This document shows, piece by piece, positions 15,233 through 56,122 of a stretch of 64,000 nucleotides of DNA (positions within the stretch are counted from its first letter, which is position 1; each line of letters begins with the position of its first letter). The notes beneath the pieces are model-generated. The model had not been told where the DNA came from, did no database searches, and saw only the letters and a program-made list of their open reading frames with translations. This DNA is from an uncultured virus (IMG/VR IMGVR_UViG_3300006033_000021) (lineage: Duplodnaviria; Heunggongvirae; Uroviricota; Caudoviricetes), in the IMG/VR virus record IMGVR_UViG_3300006033_000021. One strand, 5' to 3'. The translations under genes and the position numbers were made by a program.

Positions 15233-15248
15233 GAGTAAAGGAATAACT

Positions 15249-15557: not shown

Positions 15558-15559
15558 TA

Positions 15560-16252
15560 ATGGCTGAGCAGGTCCTAGTCGTTATGAGCGACAGCTTTTC
15601 AAATTATAGCCTTGATATCAACTATAATGATGGTGTCTTTTTTCCTGAGTCGGGAACTGAAGATGCCGGGCTGATTGATGATTTCTTTGCTATGATGACA
15701 AAAGAACATTCGTTCATTCCACGTCATGACGCTGAAGAAGACGAGAGTTATAAGCAAATCATTCCATATGTGCTTGTTCGTATCAAGGGGACCAATAGGT
15801 ACTTTGTTTATAGGCGATTGTCTACTTCAGGTGAAAGTCGTTTGCACGGCAAGATCTCTATTGGGGTTGGTGGTCATATTAATGACACTGATTTCGATGG
15901 AGAAACCGCCAGGACTTTACTGGATATTGCAGCAACCCGAGAGATTTTGGAAGAGACAAATCTTCAAGTCATAGGGTATACGTCTGCTGATATTATGGAG
16001 AATTTGCGCCCTGTTGGTTTGATTCAACTTGCCAAGACTCCGGTAGATCGTGTGCATTTGGGTGTGCTTTATATCCTGGAGTTAGATGAGAAGAATCAAG
16101 ATGCATTTGACATCAATGAGTCCTGCCTAGAGAAGATTGGCTGGTATACGCCAAACGACCTACGCCACATGCAGACCACTGGGGAGAATTTAGAAGGGTG
16201 GACCGACGCGGTGATGATGGCTCTGTTACTAACCAGTCGGCAGGGCGTATAA
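15560..16252 (+). CDS. NUDIX-family phosphoesterase (COG4112-like)
   Basis: AEEDESYKQIIPY, ESRLHGKISIGVGGHIN, REILEE, RVHLG. Confidence 0.85.
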   Translation: MAEQVLVVMSDSFSNYSLDINYNDGVFFPESGTEDAGLIDDFFAMMTKEHSFIPRHDAEEDESYKQIIPYVLVRIKGTNRYFVYRRLSTSGESRLHGKISIGVGGHINDTDFDGETARTLLDIAATREILEETNLQVIGYTSADIMENLRPVGLIQLAKTPVDRVHLGVLYILELDEKNQDAFDINESCLEKIGWYTPNDLRHMQTTGENLEGWTDAVMMALLLTSRQGV

Positions 16253-28118: not shown

Positions 28119-29105
28119 GTGATGGTGGCTGATGCAAATCAAAAAGCAATTGCCTCAGTGAATTTTGCGGAACTTATCCATTTCTTCCAAGGGCAAAGTA
28201 AAACCAATCACAATGAGTCTCACAAACAGGAAGTTAGAATAGAACCAAAAGTTCAAAAGTTCAAACCTGTTTGTGAGACTCCAAAGCAATTGGTTGATGA
28301 TGCCGTAGAAGAGGATACCAATCTAGAACTATTCGAAGATTCTCTCGGTGAGAATAAGGGTAGTTTTGAAGACAGGAATCAGGTATATTGCGCAATTATA
28401 CAATCCGATAAGACTTGTAAGATAGAGTACGAAGAGACCTGCACTAAGTTGCAGAAAAACAATGAGGGGCTGGTTAATTATGTGGTTGGCAAATATAAGG
28501 TCGATATTCATAAGCGAAAAGACCTAATTGCTACCAGTAATATGGCATTGGTGCTTGCCGCTCAGGAGTACGATGTAGAGAAAGGTACTCGTTTTATCAC
28601 CTATGCGTACTATAAGATATTAGGCGCGCTCAAAACAGAGATGAGGACGAGTGCTTTGATTCGGGTTCCCGATAGGCATATCGAAGTCTTGGAGGACGAC
28701 GAGGGAGCGGATTATGACTTTACGTGGGACTCTAAAGCAAATAACCAAAAACAATACGAGTTGGAGGTTGCTGTACATAGAGCACGAAGTGGTCATTTAG
28801 CCATCAATTCGAACGACGAACTTGGGTCTGCACAAGAGGATGGCATGACCTATGCAATAGGTGATAATCACTATAGCTTGTCGTCCCATGGTACAGATGT
28901 CGTAGAAGAGGCTATGAATAATGTTATCATTGCTTCGGCTATGAAGTTCCTTAATAGGACAGAACAAGATCTGTTGGTAGATTACTATGTCTGCGGTATG
29001 TCTATGTCTGAGATCGGGCATAAGATGAATCGTAGTCCACAAGCCATTAGCTTGAGACATCAGAAGGTTATCGCAAAACTACAGCAAGTAATGAAGCCCG
29101 AATAG
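28119..29105 (+). CDS. RNA polymerase sigma-70 family sigma factor
   Basis: region 2 LVLAAQEYDVEKGTRFITYAYYKI; region 4 LNRTEQDLLVDYY..MSMSEIGHKMNRSPQAIS. Confidence 0.88.
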   Translation: MMVADANQKAIASVNFAELIHFFQGQSKTNHNESHKQEVRIEPKVQKFKPVCETPKQLVDDAVEEDTNLELFEDSLGENKGSFEDRNQVYCAIIQSDKTCKIEYEETCTKLQKNNEGLVNYVVGKYKVDIHKRKDLIATSNMALVLAAQEYDVEKGTRFITYAYYKILGALKTEMRTSALIRVPDRHIEVLEDDEGADYDFTWDSKANNQKQYELEVAVHRARSGHLAINSNDELGSAQEDGMTYAIGDNHYSLSSHGTDVVEEAMNNVIIASAMKFLNRTEQDLLVDYYVCGMSMSEIGHKMNRSPQAISLRHQKVIAKLQQVMKPE

Positions 29106-38352: not shown

Positions 38353-39060
38353 TTATTTACTTGCCCTTAACTGTTTGAGGTGTTTTTGGATGACATCATA
38401 TTGCTTAAGCCTGATTGCTGTAGCCGGATCGGTTTTGTCTATTGTTCCATCTTGTGGAATAAACGATATGCCGCCAAAGTGAATACAGTCGTCCCATATC
38501 CAATCTCGCTCAATGACTTTGAACCCCAATAAACGAGCCGCCTCACTAACCATGGCTGCTGTGTCATAAAAGTAACATGGACCAAACTTTGTAATGTAGT
38601 TGGTGAATGAGAAGACATTGAGGATTCTCATTAGTTGATCTTTACGGAAAAGTGCGCAAGATGGATCGATTCTTGCCATCCCTGTCGTTACGACGCCATC
38701 CCAATTAACGACTGCCACAGGTGATCTAGGGGTTCTACAAACACAAAAGGCGTCATTATCTTCAAGTTCTTTTACCATCTTATCTATGCAATTCGTGGTG
38801 AATTCTACATCTGAGTCCATAATTAAGATATAGTCTTCTTTGACTTGCTTGCACAAGTGATCTAACATCCTACCATGAGTGGTGTATTCTTCATAGAAGT
38901 AATCGGCAAGGGGTTGTGCATATTCTCGTGCCCCATCTTGACTGAGTGTGACGCCTATATAGAGTGGAAGATTAGGGTGGTATTTACGAGCACTCTCTAT
39001 GCATAGCTGTACTGCATAATTGGCATTACAAATAACCATACACGCGCCAACTGTAGACAT
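38353..39060 (-). CDS. GT-A (family 2-like) glycosyltransferase
   Basis: HGRMLD, YILIMDSDVEF (DxD), YDTA. Confidence 0.8.
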   Translation of the reverse strand: MSTVGACMVICNANYAVQLCIESARKYHPNLPLYIGVTLSQDGAREYAQPLADYFYEEYTTHGRMLDHLCKQVKEDYILIMDSDVEFTTNCIDKMVKELEDNDAFCVCRTPRSPVAVVNWDGVVTTGMARIDPSCALFRKDQLMRILNVFSFTNYITKFGPCYFYDTAAMVSEAARLLGFKVIERDWIWDDCIHFGGISFIPQDGTIDKTDPATAIRLKQYDVIQKHLKQLRASK

Positions 39061-39068
39061 AATACCTC

Positions 39069-39821
39069 CTAGTGTCTTCTTTCTAAGATTATCATTCCGT
39101 CTAAATTATCTGGGTGTTTTAGACGGTTTAGTCTTTTTTTGATGGTTTCGTATGCTCTTAGCCGTTCTTGTGTAGCAGGATCGTCAAGATTAATAGTACC
39201 ATCTTGAGGGATGAAGGATATACTCCCATAGTGCGGGCATACATGATTAATCCAATCCTCTTGCATTATCTTGAGCCCCATTAATCTTGCGACATTGGCT
39301 ACCATCGCGGCTGTATCATACAGATGGTTGTATTTGTCATATAAACTCGAATAGAGGGTAAAAGAAAATACCTCAAGTATTTTTAGTAGTTGGTTTTTGT
39401 TAAAAAGGGCACATGAGGGATCAATTCTCTTTTTCGCTATAAAGGTTTCACCTTCCCATGTCTGGATGGTTTCTTTAACTTCCCAATCGGGCCGACATAT
39501 ACAAAAGGCGTCATTGTCTTCAAGTTCTTTTACCATCTTATCTATACAGCTAGTAGTGAACTCCACATCTGAATCAATAATTAGGATGTAGTCTTCTTCC
39601 ACTTGTTTGCAAAGATGATCCAACATTCGTCCATGTGTTAATCCTTTTGCTTCGTGAAAATACTTAGCATATGGTTGTGCAAATTCTTTGGCTCCATCTT
39701 GACTAAGATTGACACCTATGTACAATGGGATATCAGGATGATATTTTCGCAAACTCTCAATGCATAGTTGTACAGCATAGTTGGCATTGTAGATTACTAG
39801 ACATACACCGACTGTTGGCAT
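39069..39821 (-). CDS. GT-A (family 2-like) glycosyltransferase, tandem paralog
   Basis: HGRMLD, YILIIDSDVEF; closely similar to 38353-39060. Confidence 0.8.
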   Translation of the reverse strand: MPTVGVCLVIYNANYAVQLCIESLRKYHPDIPLYIGVNLSQDGAKEFAQPYAKYFHEAKGLTHGRMLDHLCKQVEEDYILIIDSDVEFTTSCIDKMVKELEDNDAFCICRPDWEVKETIQTWEGETFIAKKRIDPSCALFNKNQLLKILEVFSFTLYSSLYDKYNHLYDTAAMVANVARLMGLKIMQEDWINHVCPHYGSISFIPQDGTINLDDPATQERLRAYETIKKRLNRLKHPDNLDGMIILERRH

Positions 39822-39823
39822 AG

Positions 39824-40408
39824 TTACACCTTAGCGAAATAAGCTAGATATGTATGTAGCTCTGTGATAGTTTCGGGTTTATCCATTAGGAAGTCAGTTA
39901 GCCCTTTTTCAACACCGGGTAATTCATAGTACTTATAATCATCAAATAGTATGATACCTCCTTTATTCATTCGCGGATATACATAGTCTAAGAAATTGAC
40001 TAGTGTTTGATAGTGATCTCCATCAAAGTGAGCAAAAGAGAATCTAACATCATCGGGCATATCTATTGTAGTGTCTGGGAACCAGCCCTCATAGTATCTT
40101 GCGTTAGGGCAATCCCTTAGGAAATTCTTAACAATATCTATCCCGCACGCTAGAATTCCTTCTTGGAAACGTGAACCTTCCTCAAATTCAGAAACAGGCG
40201 GTAGTCCTTTTGCGAATCTATCAAAGAGATGAACAACTTTGTTGGGGAGAGTCTTACATATGACTCGTGCAGTTCCACCGCTATATACTCCAACCTCAAT
40301 AGAATCGCCATCTATATTGGAGCATCTTGCCGCAAGAGTATGTAGGCTACGTAGTTTGTCTATATTATATAGACTTCTTTGAGCCGATTGTTGTAGTATA
40401 TCTTGCAT
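39824..40408 (-). CDS. TylF/MycF-family O-methyltransferase
   Basis: GDSIEVGVYSGGT, HLFDRF.GLP, EGWFPDT, FAHFDGD, GGIILFDDY; AGGA-N16-CCGAA at 40439-40463. Confidence 0.85.
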   Translation of the reverse strand: MQDILQQSAQRSLYNIDKLRSLHTLAARCSNIDGDSIEVGVYSGGTARVICKTLPNKVVHLFDRFAKGLPPVSEFEEGSRFQEGILACGIDIVKNFLRDCPNARYYEGWFPDTTIDMPDDVRFSFAHFDGDHYQTLVNFLDYVYPRMNKGGIILFDDYKYYELPGVEKGLTDFLMDKPETITELHTYLAYFAKV

Positions 40409-40526
40409 TGAACCTCTCCTTGTTTCCTTATATGAATATTCGGCGTCGTTTGGACAATATCCTTGGTGCATGGAGGAAGATCGTTACTAGTGGTAGTATA
40501 ATAGTACTAGTACTAGGAGGTGAGCG

Positions 40527-41477
40527 ATGGAAACGACACAGATTAATTTCAGAATAGCCAAGGATCTTTTAGATACTTTGAGGCAGATGGCTTCCGATAG
40601 AGGTATTGAATATACAGATTTGATAAGAGATATATTGAGTCAGAATGTTACCGTAGATGAACAGATTGACTTTTTTAATTGTAGAGTAGCAACCCCTTAT
40701 TCACCGATAGCTGAAAAGATTTTAGCCACAAAGAGGCTTTCAAAAGCTGAGATTAAGGAGAAAATGATTAATGGTAAGTTGTTTTTTGATAGGCAGATAT
40801 CTGTAAAATCATATGTAATACAATCTAGGGGTTCGGTTCCTGATATGCATATTGAGAAGGAACATATTCCTGTAGATCCAATTACAATATCTGTACATTG
40901 TATGACAAGGGAAGATGATCTTGAGGATGAGATTTATGAAAGAACAGTTGATTCAATAAGAAGACAGGTTGATTTACAGGTATATAAGACATTAATGCTT
41001 GGTTTAGATGAATACCATAAAATAACGATTCGTGCTATCCCCGATGATATCGCTAAACATACTCGTGATGCTTTGTATCTAGGGATATCTATGGTGGAAT
41101 CTCATGAATTTCAAGCAAAAACTGTTTTATGTCATCCATATCAAGCAAGGATACTACATGATATTGTTAGTGAATACAATGAAACTCACGATTCAAAACT
41201 CATACTTCTAAAGAATACTATGTGCCCCAAAAATACAATATTGGTTTTGCCCGATCTGAATTATTTGGGTCGGATGGCTATCTTGTCGGATATTAGTAGA
41301 AATCAGTTGGATGATCCCAAGGATAGAAAGAAGGGCTGGATCTTTTCGATGGATATTGCTTTATTCATCAGCCCTTATGCTGCTGCTATGATTACGGTAT
41401 TGGAACAAGGTGGACCCAAGCACGGTCAGCCACCTATTGCTGCGGAAGATTCGGATCCTTCCTGTTCCACCAAATAG
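40527..41477 (+). CDS. RHH DNA-binding domain fused to a major-capsid-protein-like domain
   Basis: N-term TQINFRIAKDLLDTLRQMASDRGIEYTDLIRDIL; C-term VESHEFQAKTVLCHP...CPKNTILVLPDLNYLGRM...KKGWIF resembling HK97-fold MCPs of large myoviruses. Confidence 0.55.
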   Translation: METTQINFRIAKDLLDTLRQMASDRGIEYTDLIRDILSQNVTVDEQIDFFNCRVATPYSPIAEKILATKRLSKAEIKEKMINGKLFFDRQISVKSYVIQSRGSVPDMHIEKEHIPVDPITISVHCMTREDDLEDEIYERTVDSIRRQVDLQVYKTLMLGLDEYHKITIRAIPDDIAKHTRDALYLGISMVESHEFQAKTVLCHPYQARILHDIVSEYNETHDSKLILLKNTMCPKNTILVLPDLNYLGRMAILSDISRNQLDDPKDRKKGWIFSMDIALFISPYAAAMITVLEQGGPKHGQPPIAAEDSDPSCSTK

Positions 41478-41530: not shown

Positions 41531-41559
41531 TTGACAAGCAGGGATGCGCGCTGTACAAT
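41531..41559 (+). promoter_or_regulatory. sigma70-type promoter for tmRNA
   Basis: TTGACA-17-TACAAT followed by a GC-rich leader hairpin. Confidence 0.8.
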
Positions 41560-41612: not shown

Positions 41613-42051
41613 GGGGATGAAATGGTCTCGACAGGGAGTGTCGGAGTATTTCAATGCACGCCGGGGATGATGAGTTGGCCCCGTTAACAATCTTATCAAA
41701 CAATGAAATGACGAAGCTAACGTAGTTAGTATTAGTGACTTCCGCGCAGCTAAGGCCGCTAAGGTGGCTAAGGTTTCCGCTCCGGTCGCTTTCGCTCTCG
41801 CTGCCTAAATCGGCGAGACCGTTGGTCTAGGACTGTACCGAACAATAGCCTAGCAATGTTATTCCAAAAGTCGGTGTAGAGATCCACTGAATGACCTTTA
41901 GGTGGCTCGAAATAACTGGTTCTGAATTAGGCAAATGGCCTTGCTCATTGTGCTTCCGAGCCTAATTCAGCATTCAGGGGAACAATGAGACAAGCGTGTA
42001 GAGTTGGGTATAACGTCTCTTTGGACGCGAGTTCGATTCTCGCCATCTCCA
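41613..42051 (+). ncRNA. ssrA: tmRNA
   Basis: acceptor stem GGGGATG/CATCTCC-A with G3.U70; 5' GGTCTCGAC; T-arm GCGAG-TTCGATT-CTCGC; tag ORF 41710-41808 ending FALAA-stop; CCA not encoded. Confidence 0.95.
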
Positions 42052-42209
42052 TTGGTATTCAGGAGTATTAGGACACTGGATACTATCCCCTATTTTCCTA
42101 TCTCGCCTACATATGTAGAAGGAGACACAGGCCCGCTTCCACCATGGAGGCGGGCACTGGTTTTTATGGTGACTCCTGAATTGGAGTCATTCTTGCATTT
42201 AAGGAACCC

Positions 42210-43172: not shown

Positions 43173-44216
43173 CTAGTTCAGTGCTGACCAAGTTGCAGGG
43201 TTGCCCGCAGTGATACAGCCATAGAATTTGCTATTTGCTGAGTTATAGACGACTTCAGCTAATGTTCCCGCAGTCGCGGTCATGGGGCCGGCATCATCTA
43301 CTGTGCGTACACTTAATCGACCCGTACAAGTAATTGTGTCGGTGTTAGCATTACCTAATGTAGTGTTACCATTTACTGTGAAATCACTATCAACAATTAG
43401 TTTGTCATCAGTCTTCAAAGTATCATTAGCTGAACGATAAAGATTAGCAGTGTTGGCGTCGGTGCCGAATAGGATCTTAGTGGCAGATCCTAATTCTAAT
43501 TCGTTTCCTACACTGTCGTAGGCTAGGTTGGCACTATCAGTAACTACACCAACAGCAGACGCGAATGGAATTCTTGTGGCGACGAGGGTACCCAATATGA
43601 TGTCTGTACTGGCTCCAGCATCTTGGAATGAATAGATTCTGTTGGCTGCTAGATTGGCTCCCACTTTAATGGTGGCTGTGTTATTATCAACAGTATCAGG
43701 TAATACTAGTTGCTCACCATTTATTGATAAGAATGTACCTGCTGTTGGTGTGAAAGTAGTCAAGGCACCCAGGGCTACATTTCCTGTACCAAGTACTAAT
43801 GAGTGGGCCGGTGCCGGGTCAGCATCATCATATACAGCAAATGTAACATCGGTTACATTGCCTTTAGCTGCTATGGGAGTGTAACTTGGTGATAGGTCAA
43901 TGATGGCGTATAATGTACCTGCGGCACCGGCACAATTACTAAAATCAATAGTAGTAGTTGATGCATTGTTAAAAAACCATGCTTCACCATTATCATCTTC
44001 CATTAAGAGACAGTATGCAGGATAGGTTGTCCCTGTGGTGATATCTCCGATAACCCTAGCGCCCCCGGAAATGAAGCCTTCTGCTCCACCGTACATCTCA
44101 CTTAAAGCTTTAGCAATTGCTATTCTCTGATAGATGCTTTGGTTAATATCTTGTTGTGTCGTAATATCATTTGTGGTTGATAATAGATTCAATCCTGTTC
44201 TGGTACTGAAAGACAT
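43173..44216 (-). CDS. short tail fibre-like protein
   Basis: N-term shared with 48813 and 50588 ORFs; one copy of the NLYRSANDTLKTDD repeat; AGGA-N16-AGGAA at 44241-44265. Confidence 0.7.
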   Translation of the reverse strand: MSFSTRTGLNLLSTTNDITTQQDINQSIYQRIAIAKALSEMYGGAEGFISGGARVIGDITTGTTYPAYCLLMEDDNGEAWFFNNASTTTIDFSNCAGAAGTLYAIIDLSPSYTPIAAKGNVTDVTFAVYDDADPAPAHSLVLGTGNVALGALTTFTPTAGTFLSINGEQLVLPDTVDNNTATIKVGANLAANRIYSFQDAGASTDIILGTLVATRIPFASAVGVVTDSANLAYDSVGNELELGSATKILFGTDANTANLYRSANDTLKTDDKLIVDSDFTVNGNTTLGNANTDTITCTGRLSVRTVDDAGPMTATAGTLAEVVYNSANSKFYGCITAGNPATWSALN

Positions 44217-44265
44217 GTCGTGCTCCTTATGATAACCATATTCCTTAATCTAGTACTCTATTCCT

Positions 44266-44865
44266 TTAGTCGCTATACTCCCCATTACTACCTATTCTGT
44301 CAGTCGTGAAGTGACAATCAACTCCAAGTATACCAAAGTTAGCGGCATTAGTTGCTCCTGGATCAGTTCTGTTTGCGCTAAATGTATCTAGTGGGTTACT
44401 ACCCAATCTTGTAAGTTTCAAGAGCAATATTGAACTATGACTATCAGGGGACGGTGCTGCCATGTTAGCTGCAATATTATCAACTTGGTGTGTCCATATG
44501 GCACCTGCTGGTACAACTATTGTGGCATTACCGCTAGCCCATGATCCAATTTCAGGTATGGCTTGTCCTATTGATACCCAAGCATATTGATAGTAAAAAT
44601 AAACATCGCCACCCGTATTAACACCAGGCATATAGTGTATATGAAGATTAGCTACAGTTCCCAATTTTCTTCTATGAGAGAATTGGGTGATTAACTGAAA
44701 ATAATCGTCTTGATCATGTCGTAACCAGTTTAATATGAAACCCGTAGAATTGAATTCTTCTGTTGAGTATTGCGATGTTCCACTTAGGGAACTTCTATCA
44801 ACACCAAAACTATCATCATGGGAATCGGCGAACCTATCATTAAGTCCTTGTCCTCTACTTGACAT
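44266..44865 (-). CDS. tail-fibre-associated beta-rich protein
   Basis: located in fibre cluster; QFSH..LHIHY motif. Confidence 0.55.
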   Translation of the reverse strand: MSSRGQGLNDRFADSHDDSFGVDRSSLSGTSQYSTEEFNSTGFILNWLRHDQDDYFQLITQFSHRRKLGTVANLHIHYMPGVNTGGDVYFYYQYAWVSIGQAIPEIGSWASGNATIVVPAGAIWTHQVDNIAANMAAPSPDSHSSILLLKLTRLGSNPLDTFSANRTDPGATNAANFGILGVDCHFTTDRIGSNGEYSD

Positions 44866-44874
44866 AATCTACTC

Positions 44875-47800
44875 CTAATTATTGCTTCTGTTGACTTCAT
44901 TCCACTTAGATGTAGTGGCATTGTAAATTAGCGTTAAAGTGTCCCCTACGCCCATTACAAAGTCAATTCCATCTGATAATTCTATGCCGCTATTGGCTAA
45001 ATTGGCAGAATCTCTAATTGTTACCGTATTGACATTATTGCTACCTTCTAGTATAATCATTTGACCATCGCTACCCGCCGCAATATTGGGGGTCGCTGTA
45101 ATACTAATGGGGGCTGCATCGCCTTGAATCCTAATGAGGGTGTTACTTGCGATCATGCCGGCAGTAATACCTGTAGCGGCTGCTATATTTTGAATAGTAG
45201 TTGGGGTGAATACCGTTTTGTTAAGTGAGAATGTGGCGCTTAAGCTACCTATAACAGTAAGATCGCCTGCTACAATTAGACTATCATCAGTTTTAAGTAT
45301 ATTGGTATCATTCCTATATAGGTTAGTGTCCGCACCTATAACTAGTTTTGTTGCACTTCCAAGATTTAGTTCATTATTAGCGGTGCTGAAGATGAAGTTG
45401 GCAGAGTCGGTTAATACTCCATCAGCGCTAACAAGGGGAACTCGGGTAGCCGTCAATGTCTGCGCGACAAGGATGTTAGCTGCTGCGCCAGCATCTTGTA
45501 ATGTATAGGTTCGTGCAGCAGCTAGTGCGGCAACAGAGAAAGTTAGTAGGTCAGATCCACCACCGCTTTCCTGGAGTTTTAGACTACCTAAGACAGTGGC
45601 ATTGGTTGCAACAATTAAACTATCATCGGTCTTTAATGTATCATTGGCTGACCGATATAGATTAACGCTGTTACCATCAGTACCGAATAGTATTTTTGTG
45701 GCTGAGCCTAGATCTAATTCGTTGTTAGCAGTACTGAATACAAAGTTGGTTGAATCGGTGAGTATACCATCTGCACTAACGATTGGTACTCTGGTTGCTG
45801 TTAGCGTTTGTGCGACAAGGATATTGCCCGCTGCGCCTGCATCTTGTAGTGTGTAGGTGCGCGCTGCACCTAATGCGGCAGAATTGATTGTTAGAAGCTC
45901 GACACCACCCCCGGCTTCTTGTATGTTAAGGGAGCCAAGTGTCGTAAGTGCGGTTGCAGCTATTAATGTCCCATCAGTTTTTAGTGTGTTAGCGGCTGAG
46001 CGATATAGATTAGTGTCAACATCAAATAATAGCTTGGTGGCAGCACCTAGTTCTAGTTCATTCCCGACGCTATCGTATACTAGATTGGCTGAATTAGTTA
46101 GCACCCCATCGGCGGATACGTATGGAATTCTGGTAGCAGTTAGTGTTTGTGCAACTAGAATATTTGCAGCGGCTCCAGCATCTTGAAGTGTATAGGTGCG
46201 TGCTGCACCTAATGCGGCAGAGTTAATTGTCAGTAACTCAAGTCCACCAGCTTCTTGAAGTTTTAAGCTACCTAGAACTGTTGCATTAGCGCCGACAATT
46301 AGGTCGTCATCTGTCTTTAATGTATCATTGGCTGATCGATATAGATTGACGCTATTGGCATCTGTACCGAAGAGTATCTTGGTCGCAGATCCAAGCTCTA
46401 GCTCATTACCGACACTATCGAAAACTAGATTCGCAGAGTTGGTTAGTACGCCATCAGAGGATACATATGGAATGTAGGTCGCCGTTAGAGTTTGAGCCAC
46501 CAATAGATTACCGGAAGCACCAGCATCTTGAATAGTGTAGGTCCTTGGCGCAGCGCTTGCGGCTGCAACAATACTGATTAAGTCGGCACCACCGCCTAAT
46601 TCTTGTATCTTCAGTGTACCAAGCGCCGTTAGGTCTACTGCAACAATTAGGCTATCATCGGTTTTAAGTACATGGGCGGAATCCCTATATAGATTAGCAT
46701 CGGTCCCTATGTTAATCTTGGTCGCTGCTCCTAGTTTTAGCTCATTAGCATCAAAGATAAGATTAGCCGAATCAGTTAGGACGCCATCGACGCTAACAAG
46801 AGGAACTCGGGTAGTAGTCAATGTTTGCGCGACAAGGATGTTAGCTGCTGCGCCAGCATCCTGTAGTGTATACGTTCTTGCGGCTACCATCGGAGCAGTT
46901 GATATAGTTAGTAGATCAGTGCCACCACCAACAAGTCCAATTTGTATCTTTAATGAGCCAAGCGTTGTTAGATCGGATGCTACAAGGAACTTGTCATCAG
47001 TTTTTAGTGTGTCATTAGCAGAGCGATACAGGTTGGCATTATTGGCATCTGTGCCAAATAGGATTTTTGTGGCAGATCCAAGCTCTAGTTCATTACCAGC
47101 ACTATCATAGGCTAGGTTCGCAGAGTTGGTTAATACGCCATCGGAAGATACATATGGAATGCGGGTTGCTGTTAATGTTTGCGCTACTAATAGGTTACCA
47201 GAAGCCCCAGCGTCTTGGATGGTATAAGTTCGGGCTGCACCAGATGCCGCAGCATCAATGGTAATGAGTTCGAGTCCGCCCGTTTCTTGAATATTAATGT
47301 TGGTTAGTGTTGTTATCGTATTAGCTACAAAGGCGTCATCAGTTTTCAGGATGTCGGCACCTGAGCGATATAGATTAGTATCAATATCCCATAGAATTTT
47401 AGTTGCGGTACCTAATTCTAGCTCATTACCAACACTATCGAAAACTAGATTCGCAGAGTTAGTCAAAACACCATCAGAGGATACATATGGGATCCTAGTT
47501 GCGGTTAGTGTTTGGGCGACAAGGATGTTAGCTGCTGCGCCTGCATCTTGGATAGTATAGGTGCGCGCTGCTCCCAAAGCAGCAGAGTTAATCGTTAGTA
47601 GGTCAGCCCCACCAGCCTCTTGAAGTTTTAGAGAGCCTAAGACTGATAGGTTAAGTGCTACGATTAAATTATCGTCAGTCTTCAAAGTGTGTGCGGCTGA
47701 TCTATATAGATTGCTATCGGTGCCAATATTGATTTTCGTTGCGGCACCTAATTGTAATTCATCAGAAATTGTATCAAATAGGAAGTTGGCGCTATTCGTC

Positions 47801-48813
47801 AGTGTAGCTGCGTTGGTTGCAAACGCGACTCTTTTATTGCCTAAAGCCCCAACAATAATATTGGCATCACCACCGGCGTCAATAAATGTGTAATTTCTGT
47901 TTCCTGTTAAATCGGCTGAAACCGAGATAGATAAAGTATGGTCAGCAATTAAGTCAGGAAGAGTTACACTAGTCGTTGTAAGTGCTCCACCAAGCTCAAG
48001 ACTATCATCACTTGCTAATACATCGGCGGCCTGTCGATATAGATTGGCATCGGCTCCAAATAGTATTTTTGTGGCACTACCTAATTTGAGTTCGTTTGCG
48101 GCAGCATCATATACAAAATCAGAATCGTCGGTTAGTATTCCGGGCGAAGATACGAATGGGATGCGAGTTGTTGTAAGCTCACCGATTAGAACATCAACAT
48201 CTGCACCCGCATCATTGAAATGATAATCTCTGTTAGCTACCCAATCTGCTGGGATGGAGAATGTCAAATCATGATCGCCACCCGCATCCTGAATATTAAG
48301 GCTAACACCTGTATATAGGAGTTGTCTGAATAAGTCAGCAGCGGCAGCGAAAGCTGTAAAGACGCCACCTGCGACAGTTCCTGTGCCTAGTTTTAATGAG
48401 TTGATTGGTGCAGCATCAATGGTATCATAGGCTATGAAGTTGATGCCATCAATATCTCCTTTAGCCGCCGCCGGAGCACTTGTTGGGCTAAGTTGTATTT
48501 GGGCATATAGGTGCGCATCTGCCGTGGCTACATTGTCAAAATTGATCAATGTATCTACATCAGTATCGAAGACCCAGATTTGATCACTATCATCCTTAAT
48601 GAGCAAACAGGTGGCAGGATAGTAGTTACCAGTCGTTAGATCAACTAGATTGATAGCGCCACCATCGAGTATGCCTTCTTTATTTCCGAAGATTCTATAG
48701 AGAGCCCGAGCAATAGCCATTCTTTGATATATGTCTTGGTTGAAACCAAGCTGATCAACCAGATCATTGGTTTGAGCTACAAGATTCAGGCCAATTCTTG
48801 AACTTAGTGGCAT
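44875..48813 (-). CDS. long tail fibre / receptor-binding protein with nine internal repeats
   Basis: 1312 aa, Ala/Thr/Gly/Asn-rich; nine NLYR-containing units. Confidence 0.8.
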   Translation of the reverse strand: MPLSSRIGLNLVAQTNDLVDQLGFNQDIYQRMAIARALYRIFGNKEGILDGGAINLVDLTTGNYYPATCLLIKDDSDQIWVFDTDVDTLINFDNVATADAHLYAQIQLSPTSAPAAAKGDIDGINFIAYDTIDAAPINSLKLGTGTVAGGVFTAFAAAADLFRQLLYTGVSLNIQDAGGDHDLTFSIPADWVANRDYHFNDAGADVDVLIGELTTTRIPFVSSPGILTDDSDFVYDAAANELKLGSATKILFGADANLYRQAADVLASDDSLELGGALTTTSVTLPDLIADHTLSISVSADLTGNRNYTFIDAGGDANIIVGALGNKRVAFATNAATLTNSANFLFDTISDELQLGAATKINIGTDSNLYRSAAHTLKTDDNLIVALNLSVLGSLKLQEAGGADLLTINSAALGAARTYTIQDAGAAANILVAQTLTATRIPYVSSDGVLTNSANLVFDSVGNELELGTATKILWDIDTNLYRSGADILKTDDAFVANTITTLTNINIQETGGLELITIDAAASGAARTYTIQDAGASGNLLVAQTLTATRIPYVSSDGVLTNSANLAYDSAGNELELGSATKILFGTDANNANLYRSANDTLKTDDKFLVASDLTTLGSLKIQIGLVGGGTDLLTISTAPMVAARTYTLQDAGAAANILVAQTLTTTRVPLVSVDGVLTDSANLIFDANELKLGAATKINIGTDANLYRDSAHVLKTDDSLIVAVDLTALGTLKIQELGGGADLISIVAAASAAPRTYTIQDAGASGNLLVAQTLTATYIPYVSSDGVLTNSANLVFDSVGNELELGSATKILFGTDANSVNLYRSANDTLKTDDDLIVGANATVLGSLKLQEAGGLELLTINSAALGAARTYTLQDAGAAANILVAQTLTATRIPYVSADGVLTNSANLVYDSVGNELELGAATKLLFDVDTNLYRSAANTLKTDGTLIAATALTTLGSLNIQEAGGGVELLTINSAALGAARTYTLQDAGAAGNILVAQTLTATRVPIVSADGILTDSTNFVFSTANNELDLGSATKILFGTDGNSVNLYRSANDTLKTDDSLIVATNATVLGSLKLQESGGGSDLLTFSVAALAAARTYTLQDAGAAANILVAQTLTATRVPLVSADGVLTDSANFIFSTANNELNLGSATKLVIGADTNLYRNDTNILKTDDSLIVAGDLTVIGSLSATFSLNKTVFTPTTIQNIAAATGITAGMIASNTLIRIQGDAAPISITATPNIAAGSDGQMIILEGSNNVNTVTIRDSANLANSGIELSDGIDFVMGVGDTLTLIYNATTSKWNEVNRSNN
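45250..48250 (-). repeat. about nine tandem 333-348-bp coding repeats
   Basis: recurring RTYT(L/I)QDAGA..(L)TATR(I/V)P.VS.DG.LT.SAN...ATKI...NLYRS...LKTDD. Confidence 0.85.
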
Positions 48814-48863
48814 TGCTGTATTTCCCTTATTCGTTCATTAACGCTTTCTTAGAATTCTACCTC

Positions 48864-50588
48864 TTAGTATTTGCTTCGACTTATTTCGTTCCACATATTG
48901 GTGGTACTATTATAGATTAGAGTAATAGTATCACCTGCCTCTAGTTCATAATCAACACCATGGGCCAAATTGAGCCTTGTTCCTACTAGATTAGCTTCGC
49001 TCCTTAGCGTGACAGTTGCTGCACTATTGCTGCCTTCTATAATAACCATTTGACCATCAGCGCCAATAGGGATGGATGGTGTCGCAGTGACAACTACATC
49101 GCCTGCATTTCCTTGTACTCTAATGATTGTGGATGCTTCGATCATAGCGTCAGTGATACCCGTTGCTGCCTCAATATTCTGTATGCTGCTTGCTGCAAAT
49201 GAGGTTTTTGTTGCAATAATTGTTCCTGGTGCGTATACTTGTGACCACGCACTCTCCACTAAACCTGTTGTTTCGCTTTTTCTTACTATAATTCTACCCA
49301 CAAGAACACCATGAGTTTGTATAAGCTGGGGAAGAGTTGCCATTACTGGAGCATTTTCAGTAAGCGCATCCTCAGGCTTTGTATATTGAGCATTACCAAG
49401 GATGTACATCGCGTGAGGGACGCTGCCGATATTCTCATTTGCTCTATAGATCCAGTTTACTACATATTTCCGGTTATCTAATTCGACAAGATTGGTTCCA
49501 TTATCGTAGGAGAGATTATTATATTTGGTAGTAGTCATATTTACTGTTCAGATACCACCAACATGATAGAAAAAACATAATAAGTCAGTTGACGAATCAA
49601 ATTCTTCTATTTGATATCGATGAGCCCCATTCCAGGCGACGCCGGCTGATATTTTCACAACATTGCCTGCGCTTTCGGTTAAGACTAGACCCGACTCCCT
49701 TGCAAATCTAGCAGTTTTAACAAAACGTTGGTGTAGCTTATTAGATAAGCCCAAACCCATTTGATCCCATCCCAGCATAAATAGATAATTACCATTGCGA
49801 TATACTGTTACATATGGTAGAATATTGCTTTCTGTGATTAATTCTACATTGGTAATTACATCAAATATTGGAGAGCCCGAATTATAATTAGCCACTATAT
49901 ATGATGTTTGGGCATTGGGAATAGCATCAAACTCTATTCCAGTAGTTCCGCCTGTCAATACATATCTTTTGGGCTTGCCAATGAAAGTAGTGTTATCATA
50001 TAGGTAAACATTATGATCAACAAGAGTTAAGGTGCCATTCCCATTATCATGGGGTAGAGTAAAATCTTGAAATCCCGCTGAGAAAGCGACAGGTATTTGG
50101 ACGAAGAGGTGAGGGGGTGTTGAAAAGCTAGTAAATAACCCAGCGGCAACAGTTCCTGTTCCAATTTTCATCGCATCAGTTGGTGCGACATCAATGGTAT
50201 CATAGGCGAAGAATTTGACGGAGCTTATATTTCCTTTGGCGGCATTAGGGACGTGAGTGGGATCGATCTCTATAACGGCATAAAGATCAGCGTTAGCAGT
50301 GGCAACATTATCAAAGTTAATGATTTGGGCATCGGTCACATCAAAGAACCATACTTCATCATCGTCATCCAACAATATTAAGCATACCGCAGGATACATA
50401 TTGCCGGCTCCGAGATCGGATAGTGTTGCGGCACCGCCATCGACAATTCCTTGTTGTTGATCGAAAAGGTGATATAGACATCGAGCGAGCGCAATCCGTT
50501 GATAGATATTCTGGTTAAAACCCAACTGATCTACTATATCTTTACTTTGACAAATGAGATTCAATCCCGCCCTAGAGCTTAGTGCCAT
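48864..50588 (-). CDS. tail fibre-like protein interrupted by one in-frame TGA (49548-49550)
   Basis: ORFs 49548-50588 and 48864-49538 are in frame; joined product has the N- and C-terminal domains of the 1312-aa fibre. Confidence 0.7.
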
Positions 50589-50597
50589 GTCAACACC

Positions 50598-52097
50598 TTA
50601 ACCTATCAAGGCGTCACCAACACTGTCTATACCGATATCCCATGCATCTGGTGTTGCCGCGCCTAGTAGACCAGGAGTGACAGGTAGATCTTGTTGCATA
50701 TAAAGACCCCAGAATGTAGGCCATTGGCTCACAGTATTGTTAACTCCGATTCTTACCCAATATCTTTCTATAGCATCCAATGAATCGCTATTGACGGCAG
50801 TGAGATCCGTCTTTTTCCAGTTTCCAGGTTGTGTCCAATAGATAGAACCTGTAACTGCTAGGTTTCTATCGATTTGTGTCGTGCCGCCATAAACTGTGGT
50901 GCATCTATTGGTATTATCAGTAACTGCACCAACTGTCTGCCAAGTATTATCCACCCTTAGGTATTCTACAACGAGGTTAGAAGTCGTGGTTTGTGCTCCG
51001 GTAGCAATGAATTCAGTTGCCGCAGTTAGGTTGCCGCTAAATGTGAGTTCTATCCAATATAGATTGGTCACTCCCGCGCCCGCAAAGGCGTTCACGGCTG
51101 TATCGGCAGTCCAAGCTGCTGGTGCAGCCCAAGTTACAACACCATCTACTGCTAGAGATGCGCCACCATTAGCAGTATTGTCAGTACTAGCTAGCGCCGC
51201 GAAGGCGAGTCCATTCCAGTACTTAGTTGTCATTACAGAGGCAAGAGCATTCGCGGAGTTAATTACGATATTCAAGCCATTGGTCTTTTGTGATAAGCCG
51301 ACATAGATCTTATCTTGTGCTGCAACAAAGGCAGCAAATGCTTGACCTGTACCAGTTAAATCAGCAGTAATATCGGAAAGTACAGCGTTATCAGAGTATA
51401 CGGCTTCTTGTACTGAACCTTGTGCTACGATCATAGCATGATCTAAACTTGCATATAGTCGAGCGAATGGTACTGCCGCCCCAAGATAGATATAGTTGTC
51501 ATTGGCAGATGTATCTGCTAATAATTGAGTAGCATATGCGCGATAAGCATTGCACATTTTCTTAGTGTATTCTGTGAAGTTATTGCCATCATAGGCCCAT
51601 ATGGCTTTTCTTTGAATACCCCATTTCTGTGGAGAAGATAAGACGGATCCACCGTCAGTTGCCTTAACTCTAGCTGTGACTCTTACGGTAAAACCTGTTG
51701 CTTTGTTGAGTGTAACATTTGCTATATAGAAGTGTAGGCACTTGGCGTTTGTCGCATCATAGTATTGAACAGGAGCCGCACCGAGGTTAAGATCAAGCCG
51801 CCAAGTAGGTGAAACACCAAGACCCGAGCTAGCTACATTATTGGCTTCATATAGTGTGAGACGCTCTTTGCCAAGATCGCTTGTGGCTTCTCTATAACCA
51901 GCTCCATCACTCAAAATGCGAAGATCAAGAGTACCTGTTACAGCATTCTCATTCGCTATAACTGTAATATAGGTAATTTCTGCTTTATCAGCAAAATAAG
52001 GTATAGAGAAGTAGATTTCATCGGCGGCGGTCGTCCCAATTGCTTGACTTACGCCTTCGACGATTATCTCTTGCTGAATGTAGCTGTATAGATCCAT
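50598..52097 (-). CDS. virion structural protein (beta-rich)
   Basis: 499 aa; duplicated DNT...G.(V/I).W..P..W and YW(I/V) motifs; heads the fibre operon. Confidence 0.6.
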   Translation of the reverse strand: MDLYSYIQQEIIVEGVSQAIGTTAADEIYFSIPYFADKAEITYITVIANENAVTGTLDLRILSDGAGYREATSDLGKERLTLYEANNVASSGLGVSPTWRLDLNLGAAPVQYYDATNAKCLHFYIANVTLNKATGFTVRVTARVKATDGGSVLSSPQKWGIQRKAIWAYDGNNFTEYTKKMCNAYRAYATQLLADTSANDNYIYLGAAVPFARLYASLDHAMIVAQGSVQEAVYSDNAVLSDITADLTGTGQAFAAFVAAQDKIYVGLSQKTNGLNIVINSANALASVMTTKYWNGLAFAALASTDNTANGGASLAVDGVVTWAAPAAWTADTAVNAFAGAGVTNLYWIELTFSGNLTAATEFIATGAQTTTSNLVVEYLRVDNTWQTVGAVTDNTNRCTTVYGGTTQIDRNLAVTGSIYWTQPGNWKKTDLTAVNSDSLDAIERYWVRIGVNNTVSQWPTFWGLYMQQDLPVTPGLLGAATPDAWDIGIDSVGDALIG

Positions 52098-52227: not shown

Positions 52228-52647
52228 TTATGTCGGGGCGACTTTTACGGTATTTGTAGGTGCTACATTGGATACTGGGGCTACAGGTTCCGCGACTAAT
52301 TTGCCTAACATAGCTAAGTCGTTGACGCTAACCTTGACTCCTGGTAGTGTGTTAATAGAAATAGGCTCAAAATCTAGTGCAACTTCTTCATTGAGCAATC
52401 GATTAAAATCGTCATGAAAATCCTTGCGCTTTGCGTCGGGTACTTCAATCCCGGTCTTACCATTCTCCCCGTATTGTTTGACTAATTCTTGTCTTTTGCG
52501 ATCAATTTCTTGCCAAGCCTCCATGAATGGCTCCACGGTTCGCTTGAAAAGCATCCAGGCAGGTCGAATATCCATGTCGGTACCACAGATCTTGTCGAGA
52601 ACTGACTTCGCGCTCCAAAGTTCGCCAGCTTTAATCATTAGTTTCAT
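52228..52647 (-). CDS. DUF1617-like phage protein
   Basis: KRQELVKQYGE...FNRLLNEEVALDFEPI pattern. Confidence 0.5.
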   Translation of the reverse strand: MKLMIKAGELWSAKSVLDKICGTDMDIRPAWMLFKRTVEPFMEAWQEIDRKRQELVKQYGENGKTGIEVPDAKRKDFHDDFNRLLNEEVALDFEPISINTLPGVKVSVNDLAMLGKLVAEPVAPVSNVAPTNTVKVAPT

Positions 52648-52716: not shown

Positions 52717-54378
52717 TCAAGAGAGTTTTGTTTCAGCCGGTATCCAGCCATATAGCACTGCTTGGTATTGTTTAGCTTGAACGCCGTTGATTTTCTTGGT
52801 CGCTGTACCTTCGGGAATTAAAATAGCATTGGCAGGCAATTTAATCGGGTCTTTACCAAAGATCGGATATAGTAGCGTGCTACCCTCGGGATTAAGGGTG
52901 CCCGCCGGCATCTCAGGCTTATATGATTTGCTAGGGGTGGGTTTCATACTAGATATCCCATCCCCATATTCAGGTAGTACGGGTAGCACAGGAGTTAAAT
53001 CGTTGGCCCATGGTTCTGTTTGCGCTTCTTGAGGATCTACTCCTAAATATGGTGTGGGCTGTTTATCACCTTCATTGGTAATACTATCCTTTATGCGTTT
53101 ATCAATCTGTTCTCGTTCTGCTTGTAGCTTTTCTGCAACAGAGAATTGCTCGCTATTCTTTCGCTTATCGATATCTGCTTGTTGTGCTTCATCGATTAGA
53201 TCCTTAGACTGCGTTGCTGTATTGGGTAGTGCTGCAATCCTTCTTAAGATATTATCGGCATATTCATACTTACCATAATAATCAAGTATCTTAGCGAATT
53301 TCACGAGGCTATCTACTTTAGATTCTTTGTATTGTTGTAGTTTATTATCGATCACAAAACCTGGTATAAAGACCCTAACATATCTTTGATTATTAATGGG
53401 GGCTTTGAAGTAGTCTAGTGGTTCGACCTTAATACCTGTATCTAAACTGAAGGGGCCTTGATTAGTTATCAAGCTTGATGGTGCAGCCAGTGTTTTCAAT
53501 CCCTTAATGTAGCTTGTATCTTGGATTCCCGAGATCCCTAAGTTCTTTCGCTCCTCTAATGGCTGCGTAAAAGCACCCATTGTGCTAGTTGCAGCAGGCA
53601 TAATCGATTGTTGCCAGTTTTGGAATTCTTTTGATTTCTCTAAATTAGTACCTGTCGGTGATAGTAAGGTAAAGTATATTACATTGTCGGTTGCAAATTC
53701 AGATGCCAAGAGTTTAGTTGATGCATCCGTTTTGGTAGCCATAAGGTTAGTAATTACTTTCGATAGTTCACTTCGAATGGCTTCGAGTTTATCTTTTGGA
53801 ATTGTCATTAGGTCATCTGCATATGTGTAAGTCTTAACTTTATTCTTGTCTTCTTTCTCGGATGTTTGAATTACAATCCATCGATCAGTAATACTATAGA
53901 TTGTGGGTAGGGCTGTTTTGAGTATATTTCCAGTAGATAGGTATGCTTTGAGTTGGTCGGCAGGAATTGCTACAGATTTGTAGTTGGCGAATCCAATTCT
54001 AACACCTTGTGGTGCAGATAGTGGAACGCCTGCCTTTGATACTAATGTGAAAGGTCGGCTTTTGGGGAAGAATAGCAGCATGGAGGCCATAGGAAATGCC
54101 ACTTTATCTGTGGCATTGTTGCGGATGACCTTTTTTGCTATGTCTTCATATACCGCTTGAGCAATCATATTTTTGTTGGGAATTTGGCTTGAATCTTCTA
54201 TATATTGTTGTGTTTTTCTGTTTTTGATGCCGATTAAGCCAAATTGGTAATCATAGGTGATGTCATATTCGCCAACTGAGAGTTTGTTGCTCAAATTATC
54301 AACATTTGACAGACGTGTGGCTGCCTTTTGTCTATTGGAAAATATGATGGCTCTATTAGTTGCTACGGGTGTATTCAT
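52717..54378 (-). CDS. putative virion-associated protein
   Basis: 553 aa; internal LVKFAKILDYYGKYEYADNILRRIAA motif; AGGG-N16-GAGAA at 54391-54415. Confidence 0.7.
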   Translation of the reverse strand: MNTPVATNRAIIFSNRQKAATRLSNVDNLSNKLSVGEYDITYDYQFGLIGIKNRKTQQYIEDSSQIPNKNMIAQAVYEDIAKKVIRNNATDKVAFPMASMLLFFPKSRPFTLVSKAGVPLSAPQGVRIGFANYKSVAIPADQLKAYLSTGNILKTALPTIYSITDRWIVIQTSEKEDKNKVKTYTYADDLMTIPKDKLEAIRSELSKVITNLMATKTDASTKLLASEFATDNVIYFTLLSPTGTNLEKSKEFQNWQQSIMPAATSTMGAFTQPLEERKNLGISGIQDTSYIKGLKTLAAPSSLITNQGPFSLDTGIKVEPLDYFKAPINNQRYVRVFIPGFVIDNKLQQYKESKVDSLVKFAKILDYYGKYEYADNILRRIAALPNTATQSKDLIDEAQQADIDKRKNSEQFSVAEKLQAEREQIDKRIKDSITNEGDKQPTPYLGVDPQEAQTEPWANDLTPVLPVLPEYGDGISSMKPTPSKSYKPEMPAGTLNPEGSTLLYPIFGKDPIKLPANAILIPEGTATKKINGVQAKQYQAVLYGWIPAETKLS

Positions 54379-54865: not shown

Positions 54866-56122
54866 ATGAAGTATCGACTATTCAATCGAACTGAGAGCCT
54901 ACTCATTGTGCTATGGGGGCTTGGTTTGAGTCTAGGAGTTGCTAAACTTCTGGATTCTGGTGTTAAGGATCAAAAGGTACAAGGCAGTATTCAGTATTGT
55001 GTAGATGTTGATGAGACTCAAGTGAGTTTCAACGCAATCTCTGTCTTGGGGTACGATGCAAAGCTTAATTCTGACGCAGGGCATGGTCTGTATATTGTGG
55101 ATGTGCCCGCGTCGAAAGCTAAGGAATTTAAAGCCAAGCTAGCCAAGCTGCCGCAGATCGAATCAGTTCAAGAGAATAGTCGATTTGTTGTTTTTGGTGT
55201 TCCCAATGATCCAATGTATAAGGATCAGTGGAATTTCAAGATGGTCGATGTAGAGTCTGCATGGAATCAGGATATTACAGGCGAAGATGTTGTAGTGGCT
55301 GTGATTGATACGGGTGTGGCGTTTGAGAAGAAGGGGCGATACCCGCAAGCTAGTGATTTAGTAGGTACACACTATCGGGACGCCAAGGACTTTAGTAACG
55401 ATACTGAGATTGCTTATGACGATCATGGGCATGGTACACATGTCGCAGGTACTATTGCGCAGAAGACCAACAATAATCATGGTGTCGCTGGTCTCGCATA
55501 TGATGCCACTATTATTCCTATCAAGGTGTTAAGCGCTTCAGGTTCAGGAACCTTGGCTGATGTTGCTGATGGTATTTACTATGCCGCTGATAAGGGTGCA
55601 GATGTTATCAATATGAGTCTTGGGTCTTCGCGCGGCGACAAAGCACTAGAAGCAGCTTGTCAGTATGCATTGGAAAAGGGCGTCTTGATTGTTTGTGCCG
55701 CTGGCAATAGTGGTCGCGAAGGCGTTGGATATCCGGCAGCATATCCTTCATGTCTAGCTGTTTCTGCTGTGAGTCCTAATGGTGAAATGACTTTCTATTC
55801 CTCGTGGGGCAGAGAAGTCTTTATCGCTGCGCCGGGTGGTGACACACGTAACTTCGGGAAACTTGGTGGTGTGCTGCAAAATACTGTAGCTGATGGTGTC
55901 GATTCCTTTGAAGCCTGGAATGGTACATCAATGGCTTCACCGCATGTTGCGGGCGCTGCTGCATTGATTATCCAAGCCTATAATGTGAAGCACGGCACAA
56001 AACCATCTGCTGCTAAGGTTCGTGAAATTCTCGCGAATGGCGCTGTTCCCAAGGGGGATCCTAAGAAATTCGGTGCTGGTATTCTGAATATTGCGAAATC
56101 AATAGAAAAGTGCGGTGCATAA
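54866..56122 (+). CDS. S8 subtilisin-like serine protease with signal/TM anchor and prodomain
   Basis: VAVIDTG (Asp), HGTHVAG (His), AAGN (oxyanion), GTSMASPHVAG (Ser). Confidence 0.95.
   Translation: MKYRLFNRTESLLIVLWGLGLSLGVAKLLDSGVKDQKVQGSIQYCVDVDETQVSFNAISVLGYDAKLNSDAGHGLYIVDVPASKAKEFKAKLAKLPQIESVQENSRFVVFGVPNDPMYKDQWNFKMVDVESAWNQDITGEDVVVAVIDTGVAFEKKGRYPQASDLVGTHYRDAKDFSNDTEIAYDDHGHGTHVAGTIAQKTNNNHGVAGLAYDATIIPIKVLSASGSGTLADVADGIYYAADKGADVINMSLGSSRGDKALEAACQYALEKGVLIVCAAGNSGREGVGYPAAYPSCLAVSAVSPNGEMTFYSSWGREVFIAAPGGDTRNFGKLGGVLQNTVADGVDSFEAWNGTSMASPHVAGAAALIIQAYNVKHGTKPSAAKVREILANGAVPKGDPKKFGAGILNIAKSIEKCGA

Follow-up and report, generated by a model that had tools for sequence, protein, structure and literature searches.

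The 64-kb window analysed here, i.e. a stretch of 64,000 nucleotides from the uncultured Caudoviricetes record IMGVR_UViG_3300006033_000021, harbours an open reading frame (ORF) at 40527..41477 (plus strand) in which a ribbon-helix-helix (RHH) domain is fused to an HK97-fold domain resembling the major capsid protein (MCP) of Bacillus phage G. With moderate confidence, we consider this RHH-MCP gene to be an accessory paralogue of the phage-G-type HK97-fold MCP, in which the N-terminal segment has been replaced by the RHH domain and which represses its own synthesis. Most likely, the gene regulates itself, and its product is not the principal shell protein.

Domain architecture of the RHH-MCP

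The ORF starts with ATG and encodes 316 amino acids, and its translation contains all the peptides quoted in an initial annotation that had been made from the sequence alone. That annotation had read the first 40 residues or so as an RHH domain and the remainder as an HK97-fold capsid-like domain. Both readings were borne out, the former by Pfam and PHROG profiles and by the helices of an AlphaFold2 (AF2) model, the latter by phrog_2522, PDB entry 6wkk_A, Foldseek and VIA-align. Since the N terminus is of RHH type and the remainder does match the HK97 fold, the observation of a fusion stands.

At the N terminus, residues 3-39 matched the Pfam family CopG_antitoxin (PF12441) with an E-value of 4.3e-6 and 27.8 bits, i.e. 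0.2 bits short of the curated cut-off of 28, while the match to RHH_1 was weak (E 0.071, 13.5 bits vs a cut-off of 20.5). PHROG families of Arc-like repressors were matched at E-values of 4.6e-4 to 0.12, with residues 7-42 covered at 4.6e-4. The AF2 model places helices at residues 12-25 and 29-40, with a predicted local distance difference test (pLDDT) score of 96 across residues 11-30; in this monomer, residues 3-10 are extended and carry no strand assignment. The sequence of the RHH strand, T-Q-I-N-F-R-I, shows the alternation of polar and hydrophobic residues expected for such domains, and Q5, N7 and R9 are predicted to be its DNA-facing residues, which we regard as likely.

The capsid domain matched phrog_2522, annotated as ‘major head protein’, with an E-value of 1.8e-7, and PDB 6wkk_A (‘Gp27 major capsid protein’) with an E-value of 4.2e-9, residues 86-281 of the query aligning with residues 60-270 of the chain. 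A profile built from canonical IMG/VR MCPs, i.e. those without an RHH domain, matched the ORF at 3.9e-21. While AF2 gave no usable model from the single sequence (pLDDT 35), an alignment with 33 rows of remote homologues yielded a mean pLDDT of 90.8 and a complete HK97-type domain. The top Foldseek matches of the model were HK97 capsids (E 3e-12), and VIA-align superimposed it on HK97 gp5 (1ohg_A) with a Z-score of 17.2 and a root-mean-square deviation of 3.2 Å over 215 residues, in the model range 53-293. The conserved N-terminal segment of the canonical MCPs is missing, with the RHH domain in its place, and the C-terminal tail lacks a counterpart in most homologues in the alignment. Profiles and model thus show a protein composed of an RHH domain and an HK97-fold domain.

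Recurrence of the fusion in relatives

An exhaustive HMMER search of 1.84 billion representatives (E<=1e-3) returned 32 relatives of the window protein, 31 of which matched phrog_2522. In the alignment, nine of the 32 have an RHH-like N-terminus (P0004, P0007, P0011, P0012, P0014, P0015, P0017, P0024 and P0033), all of them metagenomic singletons on contigs of 1.2-16.7 kb. Among the 33 proteins scanned, matches to the Pfam RHH clan at E<=0.1 comprised RHH_1 (three), CopG_antitoxin (two), DUF6364 (two) and RHH_3 (one). The same fusion was also found in two IMG/VR records, G004 and G006, whose RHH copies are referred to as G004par and G006par. The pattern Q-x-N-x-R on the predicted DNA-reading strand is shared by the window protein, G004par, G006par, P0011, P0014 and P0017, and some members of the RHH clade, i.e. 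G004par and P0017, lack core capsid segments.

Further searches returned few additional relatives. A word-indexed search of 5.8 billion proteins matched the window protein only to itself, the longest contig concerned having 78,409 bases, and the same kind of search with alignment A6 added only P0024. When the window protein was compared by tblastn with 50,697 phage records, the sole match was gp27 of Bacillus phage G (E 4e-7, 21.5 % identity). No RHH-MCP was found among deposited phages by tblastn with the window protein, G006par and P0004; these queries returned only the canonical MCPs of phage G and of one uncultured 485-kb phage. A metagenome scan yielded one 3.2-kb contig with an RHH-less relative. 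There was no match in a genome-contig scan with alignment A2, nor in viral-contig scans with the window protein, alignment A3, P0002 and P0017, and a viral-contig scan with alignment A7 returned canonical MCPs only, apart from G006 itself. One locus, L109, was considered as a further RHH match and rejected, its ORF being a canonical MCP. On this locus, the region 5' of the canonical MCP gene encodes about 1,800 amino acids (L109:1599-7085, plus strand) with an apparent intein-like insertion, as judged by eye from the translation.

Phylogenetic position

The phylogenetic relationship was estimated from the capsid-domain columns only, in an unrooted tree of 43 rows with long branches. It included the window protein, 29 of the 32 hits (three fragments below 220 residues were left out), G004par, G006par, phage G gp27 and 10 of the 23 distinct canonical ORFs. 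One split (support 97/89) separated 11 RHH rows together with P0002 and P0013 from the other 30 rows, and the window protein was sister to P0002 (95/82). P0002 and P0013 are possibly truncated at the N terminus, because both lie on contigs of about 1 kb. P0017, a degenerate RHH form on a long branch, fell across the split from the other RHH rows, but a single clade of all RHH rows including P0017 was not rejected by the approximately unbiased test (p 0.126). These sequence relationships lend good support to placing the window protein in an RHH-bearing branch of the phage-G-type MCP family.

Extra MCP copies and their divergence

Scans of IMG/VR for the family gave 24 loci and later 40 loci, mostly on contigs of 100-500 kb. 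The canonical MCP ORFs comprise 288-320 residues from stop to stop, have no RHH domain and, in all 24 canonical IMG/VR ORFs, carry a conserved N-terminal segment ahead of a Y-x-x-(V/I)-G-R motif. The 62 IMG/VR records with a canonical MCP were then searched whole with family profiles, and in two of them, i.e. G004 and G006, an RHH-MCP gene stands beside the canonical gene; this frequency is a lower bound, because most of the 62 records are fragments. In G004, the canonical MCP gene (70118-70921) and the gene for a 317-residue RHH-MCP (L031:1459-2412, minus strand) are about 1.6 kb apart; in G006, the canonical gene (15121-15978) lies about 5 kb from a 993-nt gene for a 330-residue RHH-MCP (L053:1501-2493, minus strand).

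While the canonical MCPs of G004 and G006 share 85.7 % identity (210/245), their RHH copies share only 24.3 % (50/206). Between these two genomes, divergence of the RHH copy therefore far exceeds that of the canonical MCP. In addition, none of the four relatives that are at least 98 % complete harbours a second family member, with one match each. The presence of a co-resident canonical MCP, the difference in identity and the absence from these four relatives argue for a clade of accessory, fast-evolving paralogues. For the two members from G004 and G006, this nature was observed directly; for the window gene, we infer it from them.

MCP paralogy is common in the phage-G-type group. Record G028 carries an RHH-less second copy of 356 residues (L117), 2 kb from the MCP gene and identical to hit P0028, and G026 (L118-L121) has ORFs of 410, 288 and 169 residues with partial MCP matches, as well as a stand-alone RHH protein of 116 residues, the strand of which resembles that of the window protein. 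As both RHH-bearing and RHH-less paralogues exist, a match to ‘major head protein’ does not by itself identify the shell gene in giant-phage metagenomes.

In G004, the RHH-MCP gene is convergent with a gene (L031:812-1408, plus strand) for a 198-residue protein, in which an RHH-like N-terminus, weakly matching ParG (E 0.013), is followed by an Hsp20/alpha-crystallin domain (E 6.4e-14).

Promoter anatomy and operator-like repeats

The initial annotation had placed the gene on the plus strand after a TATAAT hexamer, which was located accordingly (Table 1). Two direct repeats, TACTAGTGGTAG (40485-40496) and TACTAGTACTAG (40505-40516), are spaced 20 bp apart with the -10 hexamer between them. Between the -10 element and the ribosome-binding site, TAGTACTAGTACTA (40502-40515) forms a perfect palindrome of 14 bp, which has no further zero-mismatch occurrence in the window; from the observed rate of such palindromes in the window we calculate a chance of about 0.003 for one to fall in the 55-bp spacer. 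When up to one mismatch was allowed, five of the nine matches to the repeat pattern in the window fell within 40485-40518, and pattern searches revealed no convincing additional operator copies elsewhere in the 64 kb. A consensus scan called no full sigma-70 promoter at the gene. As for expression, the only sequencing run in which this DNA was detected is a DNA run, possibly its source, and no RNA run is listed for it.

Similar arrangements were found upstream of the other RHH-MCP genes. G004par is preceded by 6.8 tandem copies of a 12-bp unit, which fill the stretch from an extended -10 element to the ribosome-binding site and are found nowhere else in the 183-kb record, and G006par by two related heptamers 20 bp apart, downstream of a TATAAT. 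In all three RHH-MCP genes with readable upstream DNA, private repeats thus lie in the stretch from the -10 element to the ribosome-binding site. Short repeats at the promoter of their own gene are typical of autorepressing RHH proteins such as Arc, Mnt, CopG and omega. The operator-like repeats at three independent RHH-MCP genes therefore point to autorepression, with the repeats of the window as candidate binding sites; this reading derives from promoter anatomy.

At the other end of the gene, the hairpin across the stop codon has a folding energy of -23.8 kcal/mol (z -6.2), and none of 200 shuffled sequences was equally stable. It may act as a terminator or as a transcript-stabilizing element; no T-run follows it, and a terminator scan made no call. 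With its promoter, repeats, strong ribosome-binding site, ORF and stop hairpin, the gene constitutes a self-contained cassette.

Table 1. Elements of the RHH-MCP gene and its flanks in the 64-kb window
Feature	Position	Strand	Basis
Operator-like repeats	40485..40516	.	Direct repeats and palindrome
-10 hexamer TATAAT within motif GTGGTAGTATA; weak -35 region	40497..40502	+	Sequence
Ribosome-binding site AGGAGG, 6 nt 5' of ATG	40515..40520	+	Sequence
RHH domain, residues ~1-42	40527..40652	+	Pfam, PHROG, AF2
Flexible linker, residues ~43-52	40653..40682	+	Mean pLDDT 52 over residues 41-50
HK97-fold capsid-protein-like domain, phage-G gp27 type, residues ~53-295	40683..41411	+	Profiles, model
Low-confidence C-terminal tail, residues ~296-316, plus stop codon	41412..41477	+	pLDDT 53-73
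Perfect 15-bp-stem hairpin across the stop codon	41470..41502	+	RNA fold

The motif GTGSTASNATA occurs seven times in the window, vs 0.46 expected, always on the plus strand (13142, 20773, 25345, 29152, 38181, 40490 and 58546), a count that is descriptive only, as the pattern was chosen post hoc. The genes downstream of these sites include a ligase, a clamp loader and an HD hydrolase, and several sites are accompanied by TTGAC-type -35 elements; the motif probably marks a promoter class of early or middle genes. By the same post hoc comparison, the -10 region of the RHH-MCP gene resembles those of the DNA-metabolism genes, unlike the upstream regions of the virion-like block on the minus strand. 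The window also encodes a sigma-70-family factor with regions 2 and 4 (28119-29105, plus strand), which implies a separate promoter class for some genes.

Divergently from the RHH-MCP gene, the region 38353-40471 (minus strand) encodes a TylF-like O-methyltransferase and two paralogous family-2 glycosyltransferases. For the methyltransferase, the second methionine (about 40408), which has a GGAGAGG ribosome-binding site, is the more likely start. The shared intergenic region would then span about 118 bp, so that the RHH operator could also affect this operon.

Proposed mechanism

In the autorepression model, the RHH domain would dimerize, as is characteristic of its family, and bind the palindrome and the direct repeats, which extend over the -10 element and the probable start of transcription. 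Binding at its own promoter would then repress its own synthesis, as the operator-like repeats at three genes of the clade suggest. Most plausibly, the capsid-like domain, a complete HK97 fold in the model, would bind capsid proteins or assembly intermediates; capsid assembly could thereby lower the free DNA-binding pool and couple the output of the gene to demand. The main shell protein would be a separate canonical MCP encoded outside the window, as judged from the relatives.

This model comes close to the proposal of the initial annotation, i.e. a repurposed capsid paralogue with a DNA-binding domain. The RHH clade, the extra copies beside the MCP gene in two genomes and the operator-like repeats at three genes all fit that proposal, but the paralogue status in this phage does so less directly: as there is no canonical MCP gene in the window, it rests on the relatives. 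Our data also agree with its further idea of a sensor or regulator of capsid assembly.

It is tempting to speculate that the protein acts as a capsid-assembly-coupled switch, in which docking on capsomers or procapsids would pull the RHH repressor off the DNA, so that assembly progress would set the timing of expression from its own promoter and from the divergent methyltransferase/glycosyltransferase operon, and perhaps also at sites beyond the window. We regard a switch of this reach as rather doubtful. An assembly checkpoint of such a kind is known for flagella; to our knowledge, none is known for phage heads. The RHH-Hsp20 fusion in G004 suggests that an RHH domain combined with a client-binding domain may be a general demand-sensing design in these phages.

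If the capsid-like domain still recognizes capsid proteins, the gene would represent either a direct link between shell assembly and transcription in giant phages or a fast-evolving capsid mimic for conflict with hosts or rivals. Either role, if true, would be a new use of the HK97 fold.

Genomic neighbourhood

The initial annotation had located the gene outside the structural module. This holds only in part: a tail-fibre-like block on the minus strand starts 1.7 kb downstream, and homologues of two MCP neighbours lie 11-14 kb away. To identify these homologues, profiles of 32 gene clusters surrounding canonical MCP genes were used, and three profiles match the window. Apart from the MCP-cluster profile, which matches ORF 40527-41477, these are a homologue (52231-52647, minus strand) of the gene of about 140 codons (phrog_1401) that directly follows the MCP gene in relatives, and a homologue (54866-56122, plus strand) of an S8 subtilase-like gene located about 4.5 kb downstream of the MCP gene in relatives. 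This S8 subtilase-like protein may be the head-maturation protease of the group.

The block on the minus strand (43173-52097) consists of large ORFs of 347, 199, 1312, 224, 346 and 499 amino acids. A phage depolymerase C-terminal domain was recognized above the Pfam cut-off in the 224-residue product and weakly in the 1312-residue product; the block probably encodes tail fibres or receptor-binding proteins.

An orphan ORF of 553 codons (52720-54378, minus strand) was considered as a hidden MCP, for which hhalign (probability 0.2 %), a PDB sequence search and the ESM Atlas gave no support. It matched no protein family, and the word-indexed protein search returned only the ORF itself.

Alternative explanations

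Foremost among the alternatives, the window protein could be the sole MCP of its phage, with the RHH domain serving as an N-terminal assembly or scaffolding-like dimerization module or as an internal DNA anchor. The domain would point towards the inside of the capsid, as is usual for N-terminal extensions of HK97-fold proteins. We consider this alternative possible, if rather unlikely. Several observations weigh against an accessory, autorepressing paralogue, and a number of them speak for a sole MCP. The ORF is the only MCP-family gene in the 64 kb, with no second member among the 594 six-frame ORFs of the window (next best E 0.27). A canonical MCP within 5 kb, as in G004 and G006, is absent here, and nothing of the kind lies within 23 kb on one side and 40 kb on the other. 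The position that the MCP gene takes in relatives, upstream of the phrog_1401 homologue, is held by the orphan 553-codon ORF. All five nearly invariant residues of the family are kept (Y58, L66, D149, H193 and G248) in a complete, confidently modelled HK97 fold, and the ribosome-binding site is strong. The tail-fibre-like block and the homologues of the MCP follower and of the S8 protease all lie within 15 kb, and the family is normally single-copy, as the one match in each of the four relatives at least 98 % complete illustrates. By identity, the window protein is just as near to canonical MCPs (30 %) as to other RHH copies (18-28 %), and long branches may draw fast-evolving rows together in the tree. 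As for the operator, perfect 14-bp palindromes occur four times in the 64 kb and are hence not rare as such.

These points have to be set against the grouping of the window protein with the RHH clade, the two members of which from readable genomes are second copies that evolve far faster than the true MCP. Moreover, a sole MCP would lack the conserved N-terminal segment of the canonical MCPs and belong to a clade in which core capsid segments have been lost from some members (G004par and P0017), and operator-like repeats together with a promoter of the DNA-metabolism type are unexpected for a late, very highly expressed shell gene. The apparent lack of another MCP gene also has to be read against the extent of the window: the longest contig recorded for this protein measures 78,409 bases, so that a minimum of 14 kb, and probably much more of the genome, lies beyond it.

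The fast evolution and patchy occurrence of the clade lend themselves to another explanation, which we consider quite unlikely: an early capsid look-alike, acting as a decoy for a host capsid sensor or as a poison of the assembly of a co-infecting phage, with the RHH domain only setting the dose. The initial annotation had named decoy and inhibitor among its examples, and of these only the fast evolution of the clade speaks in favour. Such a conflict protein would account for the contrast between 24 % and 86 % identity in the same genome pair, for an accessory distribution in two of 62 records, for the promoter resembling those of non-virion genes in the post hoc comparison and for the several diverged MCP-like copies in G026 and G028. 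However, relaxed constraint explains the fast evolution equally well, nothing in the analysis bears on a host sensor or a competitor, and no defence or anti-defence gene was identified next to the RHH-MCP gene, in a survey that did not include the PADLOC library.

Least probable of all is a minor structural protein, i.e. a special vertex or portal-proximal subunit similar to T4 gp24, which would be built into the shell together with the MCP, hold packaged DNA by its RHH domain and be kept at low stoichiometry by autorepression: the complete HK97 fold, the basic and polar residues of the RHH strand and repeats suited to tight dosage control agree with it, but absence from all four relatives at least 98 % complete indicates that there is no conserved structural requirement, and segments needed for lattice contacts have been lost from some members of the clade.

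Comparison with known systems

The closest characterized protein is gp27 of Bacillus phage G (PDB 6WKK; phrog_2522), with which the window protein shares sequence homology in the capsid domain and the HK97 fold. An RHH domain, which stands in for the conserved N-terminal segment in the window protein, is absent from gp27, the established shell protein of phage G, and whereas the gp27 gene adjoins that of a decoration protein in the head module, the window gene stands alone. According to the multi-omics study of phage G, gp27 is the MCP detected in virions (PMC12484599); a term search of that article returned neither ‘ribbon’ nor ‘paralog’.

HK97 gp5 and other HK97-fold shell proteins have the same fold as the window protein, with encapsulins reaching Z-scores of about 15-16 against the model. 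Identity to these structures is 6-16 %, none has an N-terminal RHH domain according to the structure titles, and the fold alone is silent on function. The RHH-MCPs of G004 and G006 share more with the window protein, i.e. the architecture, the Q-x-N-x-R strand, the operator-like repeats and the side of the tree, but their capsid domains are only 18-24 % identical to it and both of their genes are located within 5 kb of a canonical MCP gene, of which there is none in the window.

With repressors of the Arc/Mnt/CopG type, the window protein has in common the profile matches, which in Pfam stay just below the curated cut-off, the strand-helix-helix layout and short repeats on its own promoter. 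Those repressors are stand-alone proteins of 45-90 residues, whereas here the RHH domain heads a protein of 316 residues. RHH-enzyme fusions such as PutA shut down their own operon while their second function is idle. We propose the same logic here, with an N-terminal RHH domain on a two-function protein and an operator on its own promoter, but the partner domain is an enzyme in PutA and a capsid fold in the window protein. T4 gp24, the vertex paralogue of the major capsid protein gp23, is a conserved structural component without a DNA-binding domain. Like the RHH-MCP genes, its gene is a diverged duplicate of the MCP gene in the same phage; while gp24 is conserved structurally, the RHH copies are absent from the four relatives that are at least 98 % complete. 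Thus, both capsid-gene duplicates, in the form of vertex proteins, and autorepressing RHH-enzyme fusions are already known, but among the titles and abstract openings returned by a full-text literature search there was no description of a capsid-fold protein with a sequence-specific DNA-binding domain.

Transfer-messenger RNA gene

Downstream of the RHH-MCP gene, a transfer-messenger RNA (tmRNA) gene (Rfam RF00023) is located at 41613-42054 on the plus strand, with an E-value of 1.5e-46 and 116 bits, the gathering score being 47; it is missing from the ARAGORN output. Phage G encodes a tmRNA as well (PMC12484599). The tmRNA gene has a near-consensus promoter of its own (TTGACA-17-TACAAT, 41531-41559), separate from the RHH-MCP gene and located 3' of it, and is followed by two terminator-like hairpins (42131-42155 and 42168-42191).

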